Shown: one piece after another, positions 19,858-54,316 of the stretch
How positions within the stretch are numbered: position 1 is the stretch's first letter
How the letters are laid out: every line of letters begins with the position of its first letter
Assembly (NCBI GenBank): GCA_951406725.2
Contig: OX597817.1
Location: 62,744,001 to 62,808,000, forward strand
DNA from: Octopus vulgaris
Taxonomy: Eukaryota
DNA length: 64,000 nucleotides
Direction: 5' to 3'
Program-made: the position numbers and the translations under genes
Notes under the pieces: model-generated
Database searches by the model: none
What the model was told of the DNA's origin: nothing
What the model saw: only the letters and a program-made list of their open reading frames with translations

Positions 19858-20059
19858 GACATATACTTATGAACATGTGTGGGGGTGCGCGTGGGGGTGC
19901 GTGCAAGTTACATAGTAGACATGCCACTGGGCAAATCAAGCTAGTATTGCATATATCGAAAAAATGTTGACAAACTTTATTAGATTCTTGGTCGTCATCA
20001 GAAGTGTTTACATCAATGACCTATCCGAGAAAACCAATTAGACAATATACTTATAAACA

Positions 20060-20695
20060 AAGGCGGCGAACTGGCAGAAACGTTAGCAAGCCGGGTGAAA
20101 TACCTAGCGGTATTTCATCTGTCTTTATGTTCTGAGTTCAAATTCCGCCGTGGTTGACTTTGCCTTTCATCCTGTCGGGGTCGATAAATTAGGTACCAGT
20201 TACGCACTGGGGTCGATGTAATCGACTTAATCCGTTTGTCTGTCCTTGTTTGTCCCCTCTATGTTTAGCCCGTTGCGAGTAGTAAAGAAATATATATTTA
20301 TAAGCAAAGGCGGCGAACTGGCAGAAACGTTAGCACGCCGAGCGAAATGTTTAGCAGTATTTCGTTTGCCGTTACGTTGTGAGCTCAAATTCCGCCGAGG
20401 TGGACTTTGCCTTTCATCCTTCAGGGGTCGATAAATGAAGTACCAGTTACGCACTGGGGTCGATGTAATCGACTTAATCCCTTTCTCTGTCCTTGTTTGT
20501 CCCCTCTATGTTTAGCCCTTTGTGGGCAGTAAAGAAATAGGTATTTCGTCTGTCTTTACGTTCTGAGTTCAAATTCTTTACATTTCATCCTTTCGGGGTC
20601 GATAAAGTAAGCACCAGTTGCGTATTGGGGTTGATCTAATCGAATTTCCCCTTCCCCCAAAATTTTGTGCCTTGTACCTAGAGAAGAAAAGAATA
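20060..20695 (+). mobile_element. Tandem array of SINE family B (two full copies plus one headless)
   Basis: aaggcggcgaactggcagaaacgttagc heads at ~20060 and ~20307; a third body from ~20540 has the alternative tail. Confidence 0.85.
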
Positions 20696-21374: not shown

Positions 21375-22164
21375 GTGTTCCCTACTTATATTTCACAAAG
21401 GACATTTGATCTCTGATAATCTTTTGTACATCAGCATCCACTGGCGCATGGATCTACAAACAATTGACTATTCTTACGTGATTGTTTCACTGTATTCGTT
21501 TTATAAGAATGTCTATGGAATAATATCAAGTCAAAGAATAGATTTTATTAGTTAAGCTCAAGTGCTTGATACCGTGAAATCACGAAGCTGCTACGCTGCA
21601 TGATAGGAACGTATGGAGTCAATGTTAAATCTGTTTACACGCATGTGTAGGTTTTCATCCTTAACAAATATGCCGATAGTTCATACGTTCTTCTGTTGAT
21701 CTTTGGACATCCGAGTTTGTTGTAAGATCCATACATGATTTAACACTATATTGCTGTTTTTCCGAAGGAATTATAGAAAGCCTCAAAAATAGACACGCTA
21801 GTTGATTAAATATAATCCTCCACGTTGCATAGGTAAGCAAGTAAATTTGATCGGTTTATAGCATATTCTGGTCAATAGCTTTTGCAGGCAGAGTTTCACT
21901 GTATATGAATGGAATATCATGTAGGTCATTCCCCGGTGTTAAATTTTGGTGGTATCACGCTTAACACATACAACAGAATACACAGATATTAGTGTGTGTA
22001 TGTACGAGTATGTGTGCACGAATATAGAAATACATGCGTATATGTGTGTTCGACTGTATGCATATTCATGACTTGCTTCGGAGTAGCAAGACGCTGACTT
22101 GGCTAAAACAAAATTTAGTTATGTTTTTAACCCTTACTATGATACTCGGCACTTCTTTGTCGTG

Positions 22165-22211
<47 letters not shown>

Positions 22212-22345
22212 GTATGTATGCATATAATTAAGAGAAATAACATCTGTCAAGTAATTCAATATTGAAAGACATCATCCATATCTTTCAATTTAAGCAGAAG
22301 AAGAAGAAGAAGAAGAAGAAGAAGAAGAAGAAGAAGAAGAAGAAG

Positions 22346-22379
<34 letters not shown>

Positions 22380-22481
22380 TCAATAACAACAATAACAGCA
22401 ACAACAAATATGCTTGAGGGCAGAAAAAATTTAAATATACTAGAATAAATATTATTTAAAAAATCGCTAAATTAAACAAAC

Positions 22482-22527
<46 letters not shown>

Positions 22528-22810
22528 CAACAATTGAGGGTAAAATTAATTAATTATTAATTAATTTCACCAAGTGTTCAGTATGCAAAGGGACCATTTA
22601 AGGCGAATTCAAATTATTACAATATATAAAAGGGCTTAGTAAAATAAATTACTTTGCCGCATACTGAACTCATTAGAAATAGCAGCTAAAAAACTTTTTA
22701 AAAAACCATTTCTAATACTTAAAGAAAATCTCTCTCATATAGTGCTTGCTCAACTCAACTCACGAAAGTTTGGGGGTAAATACATCAAAAAATCAAATGC
22801 AAAGGTTATT

Positions 22811-22862
22811 TGAGAACGTACGTTTCAAGATTAGTCAACACGACATTTCTATCATCAGCTCA
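22811..22862 (-). ncRNA. Hammerhead-like motif of element 2 (inverted copy)
   Basis: Reverse complement of 23469-23520. Confidence 0.6.
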
Positions 22863-23468
22863 GAAACTCCATTGGTTTGGATTTGAAAACACTGAAAGTG
22901 AGAGCATACTCCTTCGGCCTCTCATCTCTTTCGAAGATCCGCTCGTAACTAACAGTGCCAACAAACTCAAACATGCAAGCGAAGAATTTCTGTTCTCCCC
23001 TTTCCACCAGCGTGGGTTAAAATCAGCAAACACTCTGCTTATTTCGGTAAAATCCGAAGCATTAATTAGAGGGAGATTAATTATAATTTCAACAATTGAG
23101 GGTAAAATTAATTAATTATTTATTTTACTAAGCCCTTTTTTATATATTGTAATAATTTGAATTCGCCTTAAATGGTCCCTTTGCATACTGAACACTTGGT
23201 GAAATTAATTAATAATTAATTAATTTTACCCTCAATTGTTGAAATTATAATTAATCTCCCTCTAATTAATGCTTCGGATTTTACCGAAATAAGCAGAGTG
23301 TTTGCTGATTTTAACCCACGCTGGTGGAAAGGGGAGAACAGAAATTCTTCGCTTGCATGTTTGAGTTTGTTGGCACTGTTAGTTACGAGCGGATCTTCGA
23401 AAGAGATGAGAGGCCGAAGGAGTATGCTCTCACTTTCAGTGTTTTCAAATCCAAACCAATGGAGTTTC

Positions 23469-23520
23469 TGAGCTGATGATAGAAATGTCGTGTTGACTAA
23501 TCTTGAAACGTACGTTCTCA
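23469..23520 (+). ncRNA. Hammerhead-like motif of element 2
   Basis: tgag CTGATGA t-aga..gtc-gtgtt-gac..tct-t GAAA cgtacg TT ctca. Canonical core boxes, weak helix II with a U-U first pair, GUU triplet. Confidence 0.6.
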
Positions 23521-24032
23521 AATAACCTTTGCATTTGATTTTTTGATGTATTTACCCCCAAACTTTCCTGAGTTGAGTTGAGCAAGCACTATATGAGAGA
23601 GATTTTTCTTTAAGTATTAAAAATGGTTTTTTAAAAAAGTTTTTTAGCTGCTATTTCTAATGAGTTCAGTATGCGGCAAAGTAATTTATTTTACTAAGCC
23701 CTTTTATATATTGTAATAATTTGAATTCGCCTTAAATGGTCCCTTTGCATACTGAACACTTGGTGAAATTAATTAATAATTAATTAATTTTAGCCTCAAT
23801 TGTTGAAATTATAATTAATCTCCCTCTAATTAATGCTTCGGATTTTACCGAAATAAGCAGAGTGTTTGCTGATTTTAACCCACGCTGGTGGAAAGGGGAG
23901 AACAGAAATTCTTCGCTTGCATGTTTGAGTTTGTTGGCACTGTTAGTTACGAGCGGATCTTCGAAAGAGATGAGAGGCCGAAGGAGTATGCTCTCACTTT
24001 CAGTGTTTTCAAATCCAAACCAATGGAGTTTC

Positions 24033-24084
24033 TGAGCTGATGATAGAAATGTCGTGTTGACTAATCTTGAAACGTACGTTCTCA
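24033..24084 (+). ncRNA. Hammerhead-like motif of element 2 (second tandem copy)
   Basis: Identical to 23469-23520, 564 bp downstream. Confidence 0.6.
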
Positions 24085-24272
24085 AATAACCTTTGCATTT
24101 GATTTTTTGATGTATTTACCCCCAAACTTTCCTGAGTTGAGTTGAGCAAGCACTATATGAGAGAGATTTTCTTTAAGTATTAGAAATGGTTTTTTAAAAA
24201 AGTTTTTTAGCTGCTATTTCTAATGAGTTCAGTATGCGGCAAAGTAATTTATTTTACTAAGCCCTTTTATAT

Positions 24273-24315
<43 letters not shown>

Positions 24316-24324
24316 GATTACATA

Positions 24325-24525
24325 TTTCTTTACTACCCACAAGGGGCTAAACATAGAGCGGACAAACAAGGACAGACAAACGGATTAAGTCGATTACATC
24401 GACCGTAGTGCATAACTGGTACCTAATTTATCGACTCCGAAAGGATGAAAGGCAATGTCGACGTCGGCGGAATTTGAACTCAGAACGTAACGGCGTGCTA
24501 ACGTTTCTGCCAGCTCGCCGCCTTA
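24325..24525 (-). mobile_element. SINE family B
   Basis: Family consensus with internal deletion. Confidence 0.8.
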
Positions 24526-24850
24526 ATATATACACATTATTAGTGTTGACTGTCCGACAAAGGAGTGCCGAGTATCATAGTAGGGGTTAAAAACATAAAT
24601 AAATGTTTATTTAATTATTCAATTTAGTGGTTTTTTGAATAATATTTATTACAGTATATTTAATTTTTTTCTATATGATATGGATAATGTCTTTCACTAT
24701 TGAATTACTTAATAGAGGTTATTTCTCTTAATTATATACATATATTATATATTGTGAAATTTGATTTAGAATTGCTAAGTGAAATTTTGGAATTATATTC
24801 CCTACTGTTATTATATTTATATATATATATATATACATATTATAAGAGCG

Positions 24851-25605
24851 CGCAAGGCGCCTACCTGCTAGAAAAAAGAGTTAGAACCCTTTTTCAAACC
24901 AGCAATAATACTGATAAATACGACAGAAAATCAACAGTAGTTGGGCGAACGGGTTAAAGACTTTTTAACATACCTATATAGCTCAATGTTATATATTTTT
25001 GTATTTGGATATACTTGGATCGTGATTTCTGGTTCTGGCTAAAAAGCTTACCTTCATCAGCAAGTATTACCGATTGAAAAAATTTTCAACACATCACGTT
25101 GAAGTCTACCGGCGTTCTGGATTGCTTTGCGCCAAAATTGGAACAGCATCAGTGTAAAAATATTAATAAAGAGTAAATATTCAGAGGTGAATATTTATAT
25201 AGATATTATTGTTGTTATTATTATCTGCGGTAAATATAGATAGTTGATAATAACAACAATAATAATATGGATCGTTGCAAGCCTAAAATAGAATTAGATA
25301 GCTATAGGATAAAAATTTATATCAATCATAATGGCACACAAGGCCCCTAAGCACTAGAAAGAAGAGTTAGAACATTCATTCAAACTGCCAATAACACTGA
25401 AAAATATGACAGAAAATTAGAAAGTCAGGTGAAAAGGAAAAATAATTTTTAACATACCTATATAGCCCAAGGCTATATATTTTGGTACTTGGATATACTT
25501 AGATCATGATTTCTGGTTCTGGCAAAAACGCCGACAGACTTCAACGTGGCGTGTTGAAAATTCTTCAATCGATAAAACTTGCTGATGAAGATAAGGTTTT
25601 TCGCC
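24851..25605. repeat. Two diverged ~265-bp direct repeats whose last ~70 bp are mutually inverted
   Basis: 24851-25045 resembles 25338-25527 directly; 25046-25116 resembles the reverse complement of 25527-25597. Confidence 0.8.
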
Positions 25606-27625: not shown

Positions 27626-27824
27626 TGTAGTTAGAGGAATCTGGCCGCTATTTCTACAAGATCGAGGTGTCCATGCAGAGTCCTCTTCATTTAGTCAAGT
27701 AGAATTGAAATGGTAGCATTTTAATGTAGTTAGAGGAATCTGGCCGCTATTTCTACAAGATCGAGGAGTCCATGCAGAGTCCTCTTCATTTAGTCAAGTA
27801 GAATTGAAATGGTAGCATTTTAAT
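27626..27824. repeat. 99-bp tandem duplication
   Basis: tgtagttagaggaatctggcc...gcattttaa occurs twice, with one mismatch. Confidence 0.9.
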
Positions 27825-37989: not shown

Positions 37990-38740
37990 ATTATATCTAA
38001 GGTGCTGGCATCTTACAATCAATGCATCAAGCTGATTAATAATATTCGATTTAATTTTGTTAATCTAAATGCCTCAGATACACAGATCTCACACCGGCCT
38101 TTGCCACCTGTATATGGTTGTGCACTACATACGATACATCAAGCAATTTTAATCTCAGTTGTAAATTTTTAATTCAGTCAGTGAAAGAATAAATAAATTT
38201 AGCTAGAGATGTACTATTAGCATTTTCTCTGTGCCTAAATGTAGAGTTACAATGAATTTTGAATGAGGAAGAGGACAAACGAATGTAAACATGTTCTTTA
38301 CCAGAAGCAGTAATAGAGTATTTATACACTATATTTTTCCTAAAGCATTGGTTATTAATGGGACATTGCATAATTTACATAGAGCAAAGTTAGCTTGAAT
38401 ATTAGTAGGTATAATTGGTTTAGCTTCACTATAATAAATAGTACTATTATTGGAATCGGGAACATCAGTATGTCGATTATCTGTAATAGATATTGTATTG
38501 TGACTGTTTAGGTGGCTAGAAGTTGCAATATTAGATGTAATGTCATTTCCTGTAGTATTATGAGCTACACAGTTTAATTTACTACTGCTAAATCTTGCTA
38601 TATAGTCAGCAATATTAGGTATAGTAGATTTCAACAGTCTTTTGAACATTTTATGACAGCGGTTAGATTTAGAGAAGCGTTTATGCAAAGCTTGAAAATA
38701 TTTTCTAGCCACATTAAAAGCAAAATTTAATCACAAAATA
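37990..38740 (-). mobile_element. Penelope-like element remnant: RT C-terminus plus GIY-YIG endonuclease
   Basis: RKNIL*LN..NVARKYFQALHKRFSKSNRCHKMF..STIPNIADYI; CPINNQCFRKNIVYK..VYIRLSSSSFK..TFRHRENANSTSLAKFI; AQPYTGGKGRCEICVSEA..IINQLDALIVRCQH. Confidence 0.8.
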
Positions 38741-39276: not shown

Positions 39277-43382
<4,106 letters not shown>

Positions 43383-44131: not shown

Positions 44132-44371
44132 TAATACCTTTACTATAGATAGTAGTGGTATTGGCATCAAAAAAAGCGCTGTATCAATAGTAATGCTATT
44201 TACGAAGACAGTTACGAGAATACACACCGAAGGAAAAAATTTCCTTCCAAATATAATAAATACATGGCCCACTTATTTCTTTCAAGGGAAAACGGAGGCA
44301 ATTAAAAACTATCAGAGATATATCATTCAACCCGGCGTCATGGTTCTCCGAGAAGAAGAAAATATTTCCTC

Positions 44372-44785
44372 TTTCTTTATTGCTCACAAGGGGCTAAATA
44401 TAGAGGGGACAAACAAAGACAGACAAACGGATTAAGTCGACTATATCGACCCCAGTGCGCAACTGGTACTTATTTAATCGACCCCGAAAGGATGAAAGGC
44501 AAAGTCGACCCTGGCGGAAATTGAACTCAGAACGTAGCGGTAGACGAAATACCTATTTCTTTACTACCCACAAGGGGCTAAACACAGAGAGGACAAACAA
44601 GGACAGACAAACGGATTAAGTCGATTATATCGACCTCAGAGCGTAACAGGTACTTAATTTATCGACCCCGAAAGGATGAAAGGCAAAGTCGACCTCGGCG
44701 GAATTTGAACTCAGAACGTACCGGCAGACGAAATACAGCTACGCATTTCGCCCGTCGTGCTTAACGTTTCTGCCAGCTCGCCGCC
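44372..44785 (-). mobile_element. SINE family B with duplicated body
   Basis: Two bodies and one head; flanked by a ~90-bp diverged direct repeat. Confidence 0.85.
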
Positions 44786-44789
44786 AATT

Positions 44790-45590
44790 TTCTTGCAAGG
44801 GAAAGCGGAGGCAATTAAAAAATATCAGAAAGATATCATTCGACCCGACGTCATAGTTCTCCGAGAAGAGGAAAGGATTTTCACCAAAAAGAGAACAGTA
44901 ATTTATAAGCACGTTTATCGCAGGGAGAGAAAGCCGCTACACCCTTCTCCAGCCGAAATAGAAAAATGCCTCGAGGAGGTGTAGCCTTCTGTACTTTATG
45001 TCTGTTGTGGAAAACAATATGGGAACGTGGTAGCTGTTTCTAGCAACGAAGAGGAAGCGTGTAGGATGGCTACAATGACCTGCACATCCGACCAGTACGT
45101 GATGCTCTTTTTATACATGGTACATCCTGTGACCAAAGTCGGGGTCTCAGACGTACCTCCTCATAGAGACTAGGCCAGAAGCACAGGGACTAGAAGAGCA
45201 CGGGGTGGTGATACGCTTACAATCAAGCCCCTAACAAAACAGAACAGGAGTGTCCATGAAATTCCAGGTTTTGGTTTGCTCGGTAGTTCATGCTAACCCA
45301 GACTTTTTCTGTTTCGGCGAGTGCGAGCAGATGCGGGTGGTCGCGGAGGGTAGGAAAACTAGGTATTACATCTGTGGAGAAATAGGCCACTTAAAAGCTT
45401 TCTGTCCCACTATGGAGAAGGCGAGAGAGGTATCTCATGCTGCTCCAATATTCCCAACCCCAAATCCGTTGCAATCCCAAAGAGGAAGGCAGCGGCAACC
45501 ACAACATCAAACACTGGAACAGAGAGGCAATAAGGCCACAAGAAATCCTGCTGTTCCATTGGATAAACAAGGGGATCCAGATGAGATAAA
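44790..45590 (+). mobile_element. Decayed gag-like ORF1 with a zinc knuckle (Tx1/L1-like LINE)
   Basis: MRVVAEGRKTRYYICGEIGHLKAFCP is a degenerate CX2CX4HX4C preceded by a VVxEGR motif. Confidence 0.5.
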
Positions 45591-45628
45591 AATATTATTA
45601 TCATTATTATTATTATTATTATTATTAC

Positions 45629-52607: not shown

Positions 52608-54316
52608 CATAGAGCAAAAATACAGAATACTAAGAAGAAAATACATTTTTTAATAGCTGTTCATAATTTGCCAATGGAGTCGGCAAAATGTCCTGGGTAC
52701 TCAACCAGTAAACAGATTCCCTTCATCAAGAAAAGGTTGGCAGAAGCACTTCATGTAGCAGTGCCTGAGATTGAAACTAGATATAGGGAATATTCTGGGA
52801 CGTGAGGTGGTGTGTGATGGTAGAGAGTATAGAGGTTCCATTTGAGAATGAATTCAAGTGAACCCGCTAGCGACGCTTGAAATCACCAGCAGCGCCATTA
52901 TAAACCCTAGCCTGGTGGGAACGTGGACTTATTACTCAGTATTTATTACTCGAGGTTAGAACTCGGTATTATTACTCGACATTATAGCGTAAACAAACTC
53001 CATCCAACTGGTGTAGTTGGGAGACCCTACAATTAGAGTATTATCCGCTGGAGGTGGGCTGAGGATCAATCTCTATTCTAAGTGATTCATGTGGTAAGTT
53101 ATTCTCGGAGGAGCCATCGTTACTAGCATGAGGCTGTGAGAGGCCGTCACCGCTGTCACATGTGTTAGGGTTACTAGTACTAGGGGTGATTGCACCAGGG
53201 TTGTTATTAATGAAGTGCGTAGCATTCCCGAAGCTCATAGTATTAGTATCTGGTGGGTTAGTGTGGGGTCCACATGAATGGTTCGTAGGGCCGACAGTAA
53301 GGCGACTAAGTTTGCGCCTATTGGAAGAGGCAATTATAGATCCCAAGTTTGGCGTTGTAGAGTACAAGATTTTAATCGAAGATTTATTGAAGATGGGGTA
53401 GTATTTATGGTGTAGTGGGAAATTGGAGCTTAGGATGATGTAGTGGGAAATTTGAGCCTAAGATTTAACCTGGAGGGAGAATGGCGGCTCAAACCATAAG
53501 ACCTCTAGTGTTCCACCCTTGTAGGGCCTAGTACGTGATCTAGTGATGGACAGGTTTCCCTGGGAAGGATGAAGGCTGGAGATAACTCAGCCTCCAAGAC
53601 GACTGGAAAACTGGGCGACTACTGGCCGTAACAATTCAGTTGCAGAGTGATGGAATGTGGATGAGTGGAGGCAAACCTAATGGGCTTAGATTCTGCACTA
53701 AGAAAGAGAAGTGCGAATTTCGCTTTTAGTCTAGTATTAGGAATATATGAGATCTTCTTGTGGAAACTGTTCTTCCGGAACGCCTGGTTATAGAACAGTC
53801 CATGACTATAACAGAATCATCATTAGCTGATAGGTTAGAAATCCTGATAAAAACATCAATGACAATACTATGAAAGGCAGATCCAGAGTAATTAATCATG
53901 ACATTGATAAATTGTAAGGACTTATCCGGTTTATGATAAGAGTAATATAGATTCGTATTTACGTTGTCATACGCAAGAAGTTAGTTTCTTTAGTGCTATT
54001 TTTGAATGACAGAAAGATTATAATTCTTAAAGAATGTATGCAAAACTTCGGTGGACAGTCGAGACATGGCTGTGAGAAGAGCGTATGGATCTCCGGGTAG
54101 GCTTGGGACGTTCTGAATTACATAAAAGAGGAGAGAAAAACCAATCGGGACGGTAACCTGAGCAGAGTCCGAATATCTCATGGTTGTATCGGAGAGATCT
54201 ATAGAGTAATTACGGGACCAATAATTATAATCAAAAGAAAAAAAGTGCTATCCTAGACCGTCGGTTTCCTGAAACACCTGTCAAGTTTTAAAAAATTGTA
54301 TTTTCTTCTTAGTATT
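52605..54316 (-). mobile_element. Penelope-like element, 5'-truncated, with decayed RT plus GIY-YIG and an inverted terminal piece
   Basis: DTTMRYSDSAQVT (cf. DVTMGSxDGAEVC); YYSYHKPDKSLQFINV..IRISNLSAND..FYNQAF; VLWFEPPFSLQVKS; YSTTPNLGSIIASSNRRKL; QLDGVCLRYNV..RVYNGAAGDFKRR*RVHLNSF. The 3' end abuts (TA)n, and 52626-52653 is inverted at 54288-54316. Confidence 0.8.

Follow-up and report, generated by a model that had tools for sequence, protein, structure and literature searches.

A recent three-copy insertion of a non-coding, hammerhead-bearing repeat in a TA microsatellite of Octopus vulgaris

Layout of the insertion and its target

The window, a microsatellite-rich stretch of 64,000 nt from Octopus vulgaris, contains three copies of a 564-nt unit and no further copy (self-BLAST; best period 564). 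Positions in the unit are given here on a circular coordinate whose position 1 is 23517. The left arm of the insertion (22520–23120, minus strand) runs from circle 259 to circle 297 and measures 601 nt, that is, one unit plus about 38 nt; its inner end lies at circle 259 (23120), or at 255 if one mismatch is allowed. The right arm (23118–24278, plus strand) runs from circle 168 to circle 199 and measures 1161 nt, which is two units plus about 33 nt. In the self-BLAST, the two units of the right arm appeared as a direct repeat of 23118–23715 and 23684–24278 (598 columns, 99.2% identity), and 22520–23124 appeared as an inverted match to this arm. Self-BLAST and circular mapping bore out the arm lengths and breakpoints given in a first-pass annotation of this DNA. 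The arms are arranged head-to-head: both ribozyme-sense 3' ends point outward into (TA)n, 98 nt apart on the circle, and the 5' ends meet centrally. The first-pass annotation had not stressed this orientation. The centre of the insertion is an unpaired spacer of 80–90 nt rather than a perfect hairpin.

The stretch between two predicted ribozyme cleavage sites (23517–24080, plus strand) would be a 564-nt monomer; its GC content is 34%, and no conserved ORF was found in it. A 111-aa antisense ORF was considered as a gene and rejected, with no Pfam match and no longer homologue (only longer proteins were searched); base 24024 inside it is absent from most of the depth of the repeat family, so that the frame is shifted. 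Each unit carries a 33-nt palindrome with a 15-bp stem and a 3-nt loop (23198–23230, plus strand, circle 246–278; further copies at 23762–23794 and 22539–22571). The unit folds better than its shuffled versions, none of which was as good (0 of 100 as linear and 0 of 40 as circular molecules), partly because of this palindrome.

The insertion is flanked by a (TA)20 microsatellite on the left (22484–22523), which has 4 nt in common with the end of the left arm, and by (TA)n followed by (CA)n on the right (24277–24314), which has 2 nt in common with the end of the right arm. The first-pass annotation had claimed TA microhomology at both outer ends. This holds for the left end, where only 7 of the 564 unit positions offer as much as 4 nt, but it is weak at the right end, where 94 of 564 positions offer as much as the 2 nt seen. 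A target-site duplication would be indistinguishable inside (TA)n. At the head-to-head junction (23118–23124), the arms are joined by a microhomology of 3 nt if exact or 6 of 7 nt if imperfect, and the inner end of the left arm (circle 259–262) overlaps the palindrome loop (circle 261–263). We conclude that the insertion is a recent one, comprising three copies of a non-coding, ribozyme-bearing mobile repeat in a TA microsatellite. Its youth, claimed from copies that differ by few bases, is upheld by the count of three substitutions and three homopolymer indels, to which one mismatch at the central junction is added.

An assembly artefact, in the form of a spurious tandem duplication or of an inversion by chimerism, is very improbable as the source of this layout. 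Tandem and inverted structures of Penelope-like elements (PLEs) are described as troublesome for assemblies (PMC8557442), three of the six differences among the copies are homopolymer indels, and the whole stretch occurred in none of the four sequencing runs examined in detail (best word share, 0.58). These points are countered by private substitutions in the three copies, by a junction with microhomology and a spacer, by unmirrored flanks and by the match of the layout to a known biological pattern. A palindromic read chimera or missing-adapter palindrome was rejected because the flanks show no colinear mirror image.

Three inverted block pairs straddle the insertion (22104–22162 and 24613–24555, 22214–22282 and 24745–24677, 22340–22427 and 26175–26088). 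Their identities are about 90%, about 90% and 98.9%, they occur nowhere else in the window and they are not colinear; perhaps they reflect an older local rearrangement. The right end is adjoined by a SINE-like repeat (24316–24530), of which the window has about 15 copies, partial or full; some of them are in tandem (20045–20546, 44368–44736). Elsewhere in the window lie a near-perfect 99-bp tandem duplication (27626–27824), a weak zinc-knuckle match (45235–45600, plus strand, E 0.023, below the cut-off) that is possibly a retrotransposon ORF1 remnant, and a 3.8-kb tract of almost pure (ATT)n (39552–43381). The ORF end adjoining this tract presumably belongs, in antisense, to an R4/Dong-type element with TAA repeats as its target, and similar ORF ends occur near 800–1250.

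Hammerhead motifs and the repeat family

Each unit contains a type I hammerhead motif. The first-pass annotation had placed hammerheads at 23516 and 24080, and both were recovered in the right arm: in unit 1 (23469–23520, plus strand), the core is at 23473 and GUU ends at 23516, and in unit 2 (24033–24084, plus strand), the core is at 24037, 564 nt further on, and GUU ends at 24080. A third motif, which that annotation did not list, lies on the minus strand of the left arm (22811–22862; core 22858), with predicted cleavage after 22815. All three have the CUGAUGA and GAAA boxes, an inner helix I of 4 bp that can be extended past an internal loop, and a long helix II, at whose base U-U stands in place of the G10.1-C11.1 pair. 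Helix III consists of 2 bp inside a self-complementary 8-mer and is followed by GUU.

The hammerhead pattern was found in 3 of 3000 shuffled units and at four sites across the window. These are the three motifs of the locus and a site at 25060 (minus strand), which is probably a chance match to a loose pattern. The word CTGATGA occurs at 25060 (minus strand) and 25582 (plus strand), in two related stretches. Rfam gave 6 matches with an E limit of 10 and 28 with a limit of 1, and no hammerhead family was among either set. A match to Rfam MIR7533 was rejected, being below the gathering score and reflecting a long hairpin. A 23-nt ribozyme pattern had no match in metagenome contigs and none in viral contigs.

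Folding predictions place the active hammerhead above the local minimum (−5.2 versus −12.4 kcal/mol). A double hammerhead, which the palindrome of helix III favors, is predicted at −153.5 kcal/mol, about 15 kcal/mol worse than the free fold (−168.4 kcal/mol) and about 10 kcal/mol better than two monomers. In a transcript reading through the whole insertion, 601 of 605 left-arm bases would pair with the right arm in a hairpin of about 600 bp, and the first ribozyme would be buried. The 23517–24080 monomer is thus predicted only if transcription begins inside the right arm, and the earlier suggestion that transcription of the tandem pair would release a unit-length RNA is retained with this restriction.

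The unit belongs to a large, diverged, dispersed multicopy family. Parts of it occurred in 20 of 24 listed sequencing runs, from nine studies and four organisms, with a best word share of 0.58; four of these 20 runs were examined in detail, and the other 16, with small shares, were left out. In the four runs, 3941, 8972, 44 and 520 contigs matched the unit (contig counts are not copy numbers), coverage extended to all 30 bins of the unit in every run, and joints continued across the linearization point. Loose ends ran into unrelated flanks (24 of 233 loose ends listed). The first-pass annotation had reasoned that fixed termini shared by all other copies would contradict it, and among these few listed ends the termini differ from copy to copy. 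Single contigs of run X6, guessed to be RNA, illustrate this: one ends at 23806 (circle 290) before (TA)n, one follows TA-rich letters and begins with the palindrome's first base (23762), one begins at 24080, the predicted cleavage site, after unrelated letters, and one leaves the unit at 24113. Copy termini vary, with a hint of preferred sites. Among the joints listed for the four examined runs, no strand-changing joint was present. No substitution fell in the ribozyme core among the 40 of 76 substitution rows listed.

The contigs of run X6 span the cleavage site and, taken together, all 30 bins; as contigs, they reveal neither ends nor strand nor circularity. None of the runs with parts of the unit is recorded as RNA, a blank that says nothing about expression. 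The deepest contigs of this run, on 23617–24180 (depth 67–73 versus 2–9 for the other listed pieces), represent a member of the family with a likeness of about 85%, whose sequence extends across the cleavage site. This member is a candidate for an expressed source copy, provided that the run is RNA.

Relation to retrozymes and Penelope-like elements

The locus is very probably a non-LTR retrozyme, a putative non-autonomous PLE; it adds another family to a known class with a published layout and target. Animal non-LTR retrozymes, as described by Cervera and de la Pena (2020; PMC7229834) and in a 2026 preprint (Li, Clavereau and Pollet; bioRxiv 10.64898/2026.07.22.740005), are likewise non-coding tandem repeats of low GC content, in a dimer arrangement and with one type I hammerhead per unit, and mobilization by PLEs and rolling reverse transcription are proposed there too. 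At our locus, the motif is present in two consecutive units, the sequence is non-coding with 34% GC (below 50%), and the repeat is multicopy and dispersed; a match to a curated hammerhead model and the canonical G10.1-C11.1 pair are lacking. U-U at the base of helix II (HHR_Amex2) and a short helix III are reported for axolotl motifs (PMC7229834). The unit length of 564 nt exceeds the 170–400 nt of characterized retrozyme circles and the 150–450 bp of PMC7229834 but falls within the 51–972 bp of units in the preprint, which ties retrozymes to the pLTRs of PLEs and in which only one of nine Xenopus retrozyme dimers was cleaved in vitro. An inverted arm is a further difference: inverted arms gave no hit in PMC7229834.

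The inverted arm has its counterpart in PLEs. In published descriptions, PLE insertions form partial tandems next to which lies an inverted, 5'-truncated copy; they are biased to (TA)n and have a tail of 30–40 bp, and there are non-autonomous head-to-tail derivatives (PMC8557442). They are also reported as two direct pLTRs and one inverted pLTR, mostly head-to-head and with palindromes at the junction (PMC3846280). Two direct copies and one inverted 5'-truncated copy, the head-to-head order, the junction palindrome, (TA)n and internal starts are all features that our locus has in common with PLE insertions and their pLTRs. Its opposite-strand hammerheads are 615 bp apart, and those of PLEs are 100–700 bp apart (PMC4209133). 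An autonomous PLE differs in having an ORF for reverse transcriptase and endonuclease between the direct copies, whereas no reverse transcriptase or GIY-YIG ORF was found in the locus. The classical PLE tail places the 3' ends at two fixed sites 30–40 nt apart, whereas the ends here are 98 nt apart; among the loose ends listed (24 of 233), circle 290 is the end of one other copy. Non-autonomous Chlamys elements such as MRC1, also among the closest relatives in kind, are green-algal, and Chlamys generally lack canonical hammerheads (PMC8557442). L1 twin priming and the dual priming by two RNAs, which is only postulated for L1 (PMC2837659), resemble our layout in that both target strands prime cDNA and an inverted 5' segment is joined internally; in contrast to L1, our insertion has no poly(A), and its arms overlap by whole units instead of representing separate parts of one RNA.

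The window also holds a decayed PLE at about 52783–54244 (minus strand), which includes a reverse transcriptase and, at the C terminus, an endonuclease region; in tblastn it matched an 806-aa relative (E 7.7e-27). A word search gave no longer homologue of this remnant and a full scan gave 61 matches, one of these relatives having a weak GIY-YIG match (E 0.002). A second remnant lies at about 38177–38730 (minus strand), and the motifs of both are of a type that we take to be Hydra-clade. The unit showed no sequence match to the PLE remnants of the window, and none of the 61 relative proteins, which were chosen by likeness to one remnant, matched the locus. The presence of a decayed PLE with a C-terminal endonuclease in the same window was counted in favor of a PLE-type explanation.

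That the locus arose as one insertion by retroposition of the retrozyme/PLE type is highly probable. Our literature searches, which covered hammerhead or retrozyme families in cephalopods, twin priming in PLEs and permuted retrozyme copies, gave no paper on the present family and none on arm ends that are in register; most subscription papers lay outside these searches, and supplements or repeat libraries may hold the family.

Copy variants, priming and template

Variants among the copies bear on how the two arms were made. At 12 of the 14 positions checked at which the majority of run X1 differs, the window letter is common to all three copies, so that the three belong to one lineage; a fifteenth row, 23817, at which the copies show no difference, was left out of this comparison. 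The exceptions are 23793, which is private to unit 2, and circle 52. At circle 52, the left arm has the family-type G (22763, minus strand), and both right units have a derived C (23568 and 24132, plus strand). The depth of G in the four examined runs is 110832/112302, 64923/76927, 74.7/74.7 and 11906/11906 (99%, 84%, 100% and 100%). The first-pass annotation had attributed the inversion to a template switch; this is weakened by the left arm, which does not carry the derived C common to both right units, although the argument comes from one base.

The overall explanation we propose, to which we assign a probability of roughly 0.55, is a non-LTR retrozyme moved in trans by a PLE enzyme, with double priming and a seamless template. 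A Penelope-like reverse transcriptase with a GIY-YIG endonuclease would cut both strands in the (TA)n tract, and each 3'-OH would prime reverse transcription at an internal site of the retrozyme RNA (circle 297 and circle 199). Both cDNAs would run on through the ribozyme cleavage site, end, one of them at the palindrome of the unit, and be joined head-to-head by short microhomology. As the two templates differ at one base, two RNA molecules of one source lineage, or else two distinct units of it, were probably copied. Internal starts and the use of both strands accord with work on a purified PLE protein, which cleaves or nicks both strands, extends them and initiates within the RNA without homology; ribozyme cleavage is not required (PMC11167929). 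Counted against the explanation are the lack of a hammerhead family in Rfam, of the G10.1-C11.1 pair and of a sequence match to an autonomous PLE, the unfavored active fold, the single active dimer among nine from Xenopus, the 98-nt distance between the outer ends and the absence of a strand-changing joint among those listed.

Priming from both break ends is moderately favored over fold-back; the sense 3' ends facing outward into (TA)n, with the 5' ends meeting, count in favor of the overall explanation. The fold-back alternative holds that one cDNA of slightly more than two units annealed with its 3' end to its own palindrome loop, copied about 600 nt and was joined to the left (TA)n. The overlap of the left arm's inner end with the palindrome loop fits this and the published reading of palindromes at inverted PLE junctions as marks of self-priming (PMC3846280). 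A fold-back from 23211 would, however, cross 23568 and carry C into the left arm, which has the family G; one would have to assume that the right units later underwent gene conversion with each other or that the base reverted exactly. Two templates primed from the break ends, or a doubling of the right arm after insertion, account for this base in a simpler way. The centre, moreover, is a spacer rather than a perfect hairpin, and a right cDNA of one unit could not have templated an arm running to circle 297. We regard fold-back as unlikely.

The case for double priming against fold-back turns on the single base at circle 52, and the C in both right units could also be explained by gene conversion between them or by a later duplication. 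In the latter case, the right arm first comprised one unit plus about 33 nt and was doubled, after the change at circle 52, by unequal exchange between the 33-nt repeats at its ends or by slippage from one to the other; the tandem would then record no second turn of reverse transcription. Such doubling would account in one step for the shared C, the similar overshoots and the near-equal lengths of the original arms (about 596 and 601 nt). On the other hand, a 33-bp repeat is a short substrate, tandems are described as normal for the retrozyme class, and each right unit has 2–4 changes compared with 1 in the left arm, a difference that is not significant at such counts. Later doubling appears doubtful, somewhat more so than fold-back.

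The template in our preferred reading of double priming would have been seamless at the ribozyme cleavage site, because both cDNAs cross it. Simple run-off from a cleaved monomer is thereby excluded, whereas an uncleaved multimer still fits. The first-pass annotation had called for a circular or multimeric RNA, although its title named the circle alone; an RNA-templated insertion is supported, and the choice of a circle over an uncleaved multimer is not established. Rolling reverse transcription of a circle is a published hypothesis (PMC4209133, PMC7229834, PMC7761336) that the locus fits without proving. Circles were proposed as templates for reverse transcription exceeding a single unit in PLEs (PMC4209133), a circle-template model was put forward for retrozymes, and circles themselves are shown in coral, mussel and axolotl (PMC7229834, PMC7761336).

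We tentatively put a circular template at slightly below even odds. Both arms end less than 45 nt past whole units, with a chance of 0.006 (one-sided) or 0.025 (two-sided) calculated post hoc, and such in-register overshoots might be a consequence of a circle. The overshoot of the left arm, however, may follow from the anatomy of the unit alone, since its inner end coincides with the palindrome loop. A linear template is tentatively put only slightly lower. It would be a multimeric transcript of a tandem source array, left uncleaved, or else monomers linked through template jumps; it would be primed twice, and the ribozyme may be idle. Multimeric retrozyme RNAs exist in axolotl, the active hammerhead fold is disfavored in prediction, and the pattern at circle 52 would arise from a source array that contains both G units and C units. 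Yet a linear template gives no reason for arms that end just past whole numbers of units, it presupposes that at least three units of the same lineage stand in a source array, and the predicted advantage of the double hammerhead over two monomers speaks against it.

Circle copying of retrozymes and PLEs and the origin of inverted heads are still open questions in the literature. A single locus, which with one base and two overshoots cannot settle them, points to priming from both ends in a manner compatible with circles. Because the family is young and large and has a short unit, it allows a genomic test by two measures: the length of the arms modulo 564, and the extent to which private variants are shared inside an arm and from one arm to the other. 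A bolder and rather improbable generalization is that each head-to-head insertion of the family represents two RNA circles that a PLE dimer copied simultaneously, starting from both ends of a single break, the cDNAs ending 30–40 nt past whole turns. If this were true across the family, with its likely thousands of copies, the insertions would be traces, left in the genome, of a reverse transcription that is circle-templated and dual-primed, two steps that have so far only been proposed.
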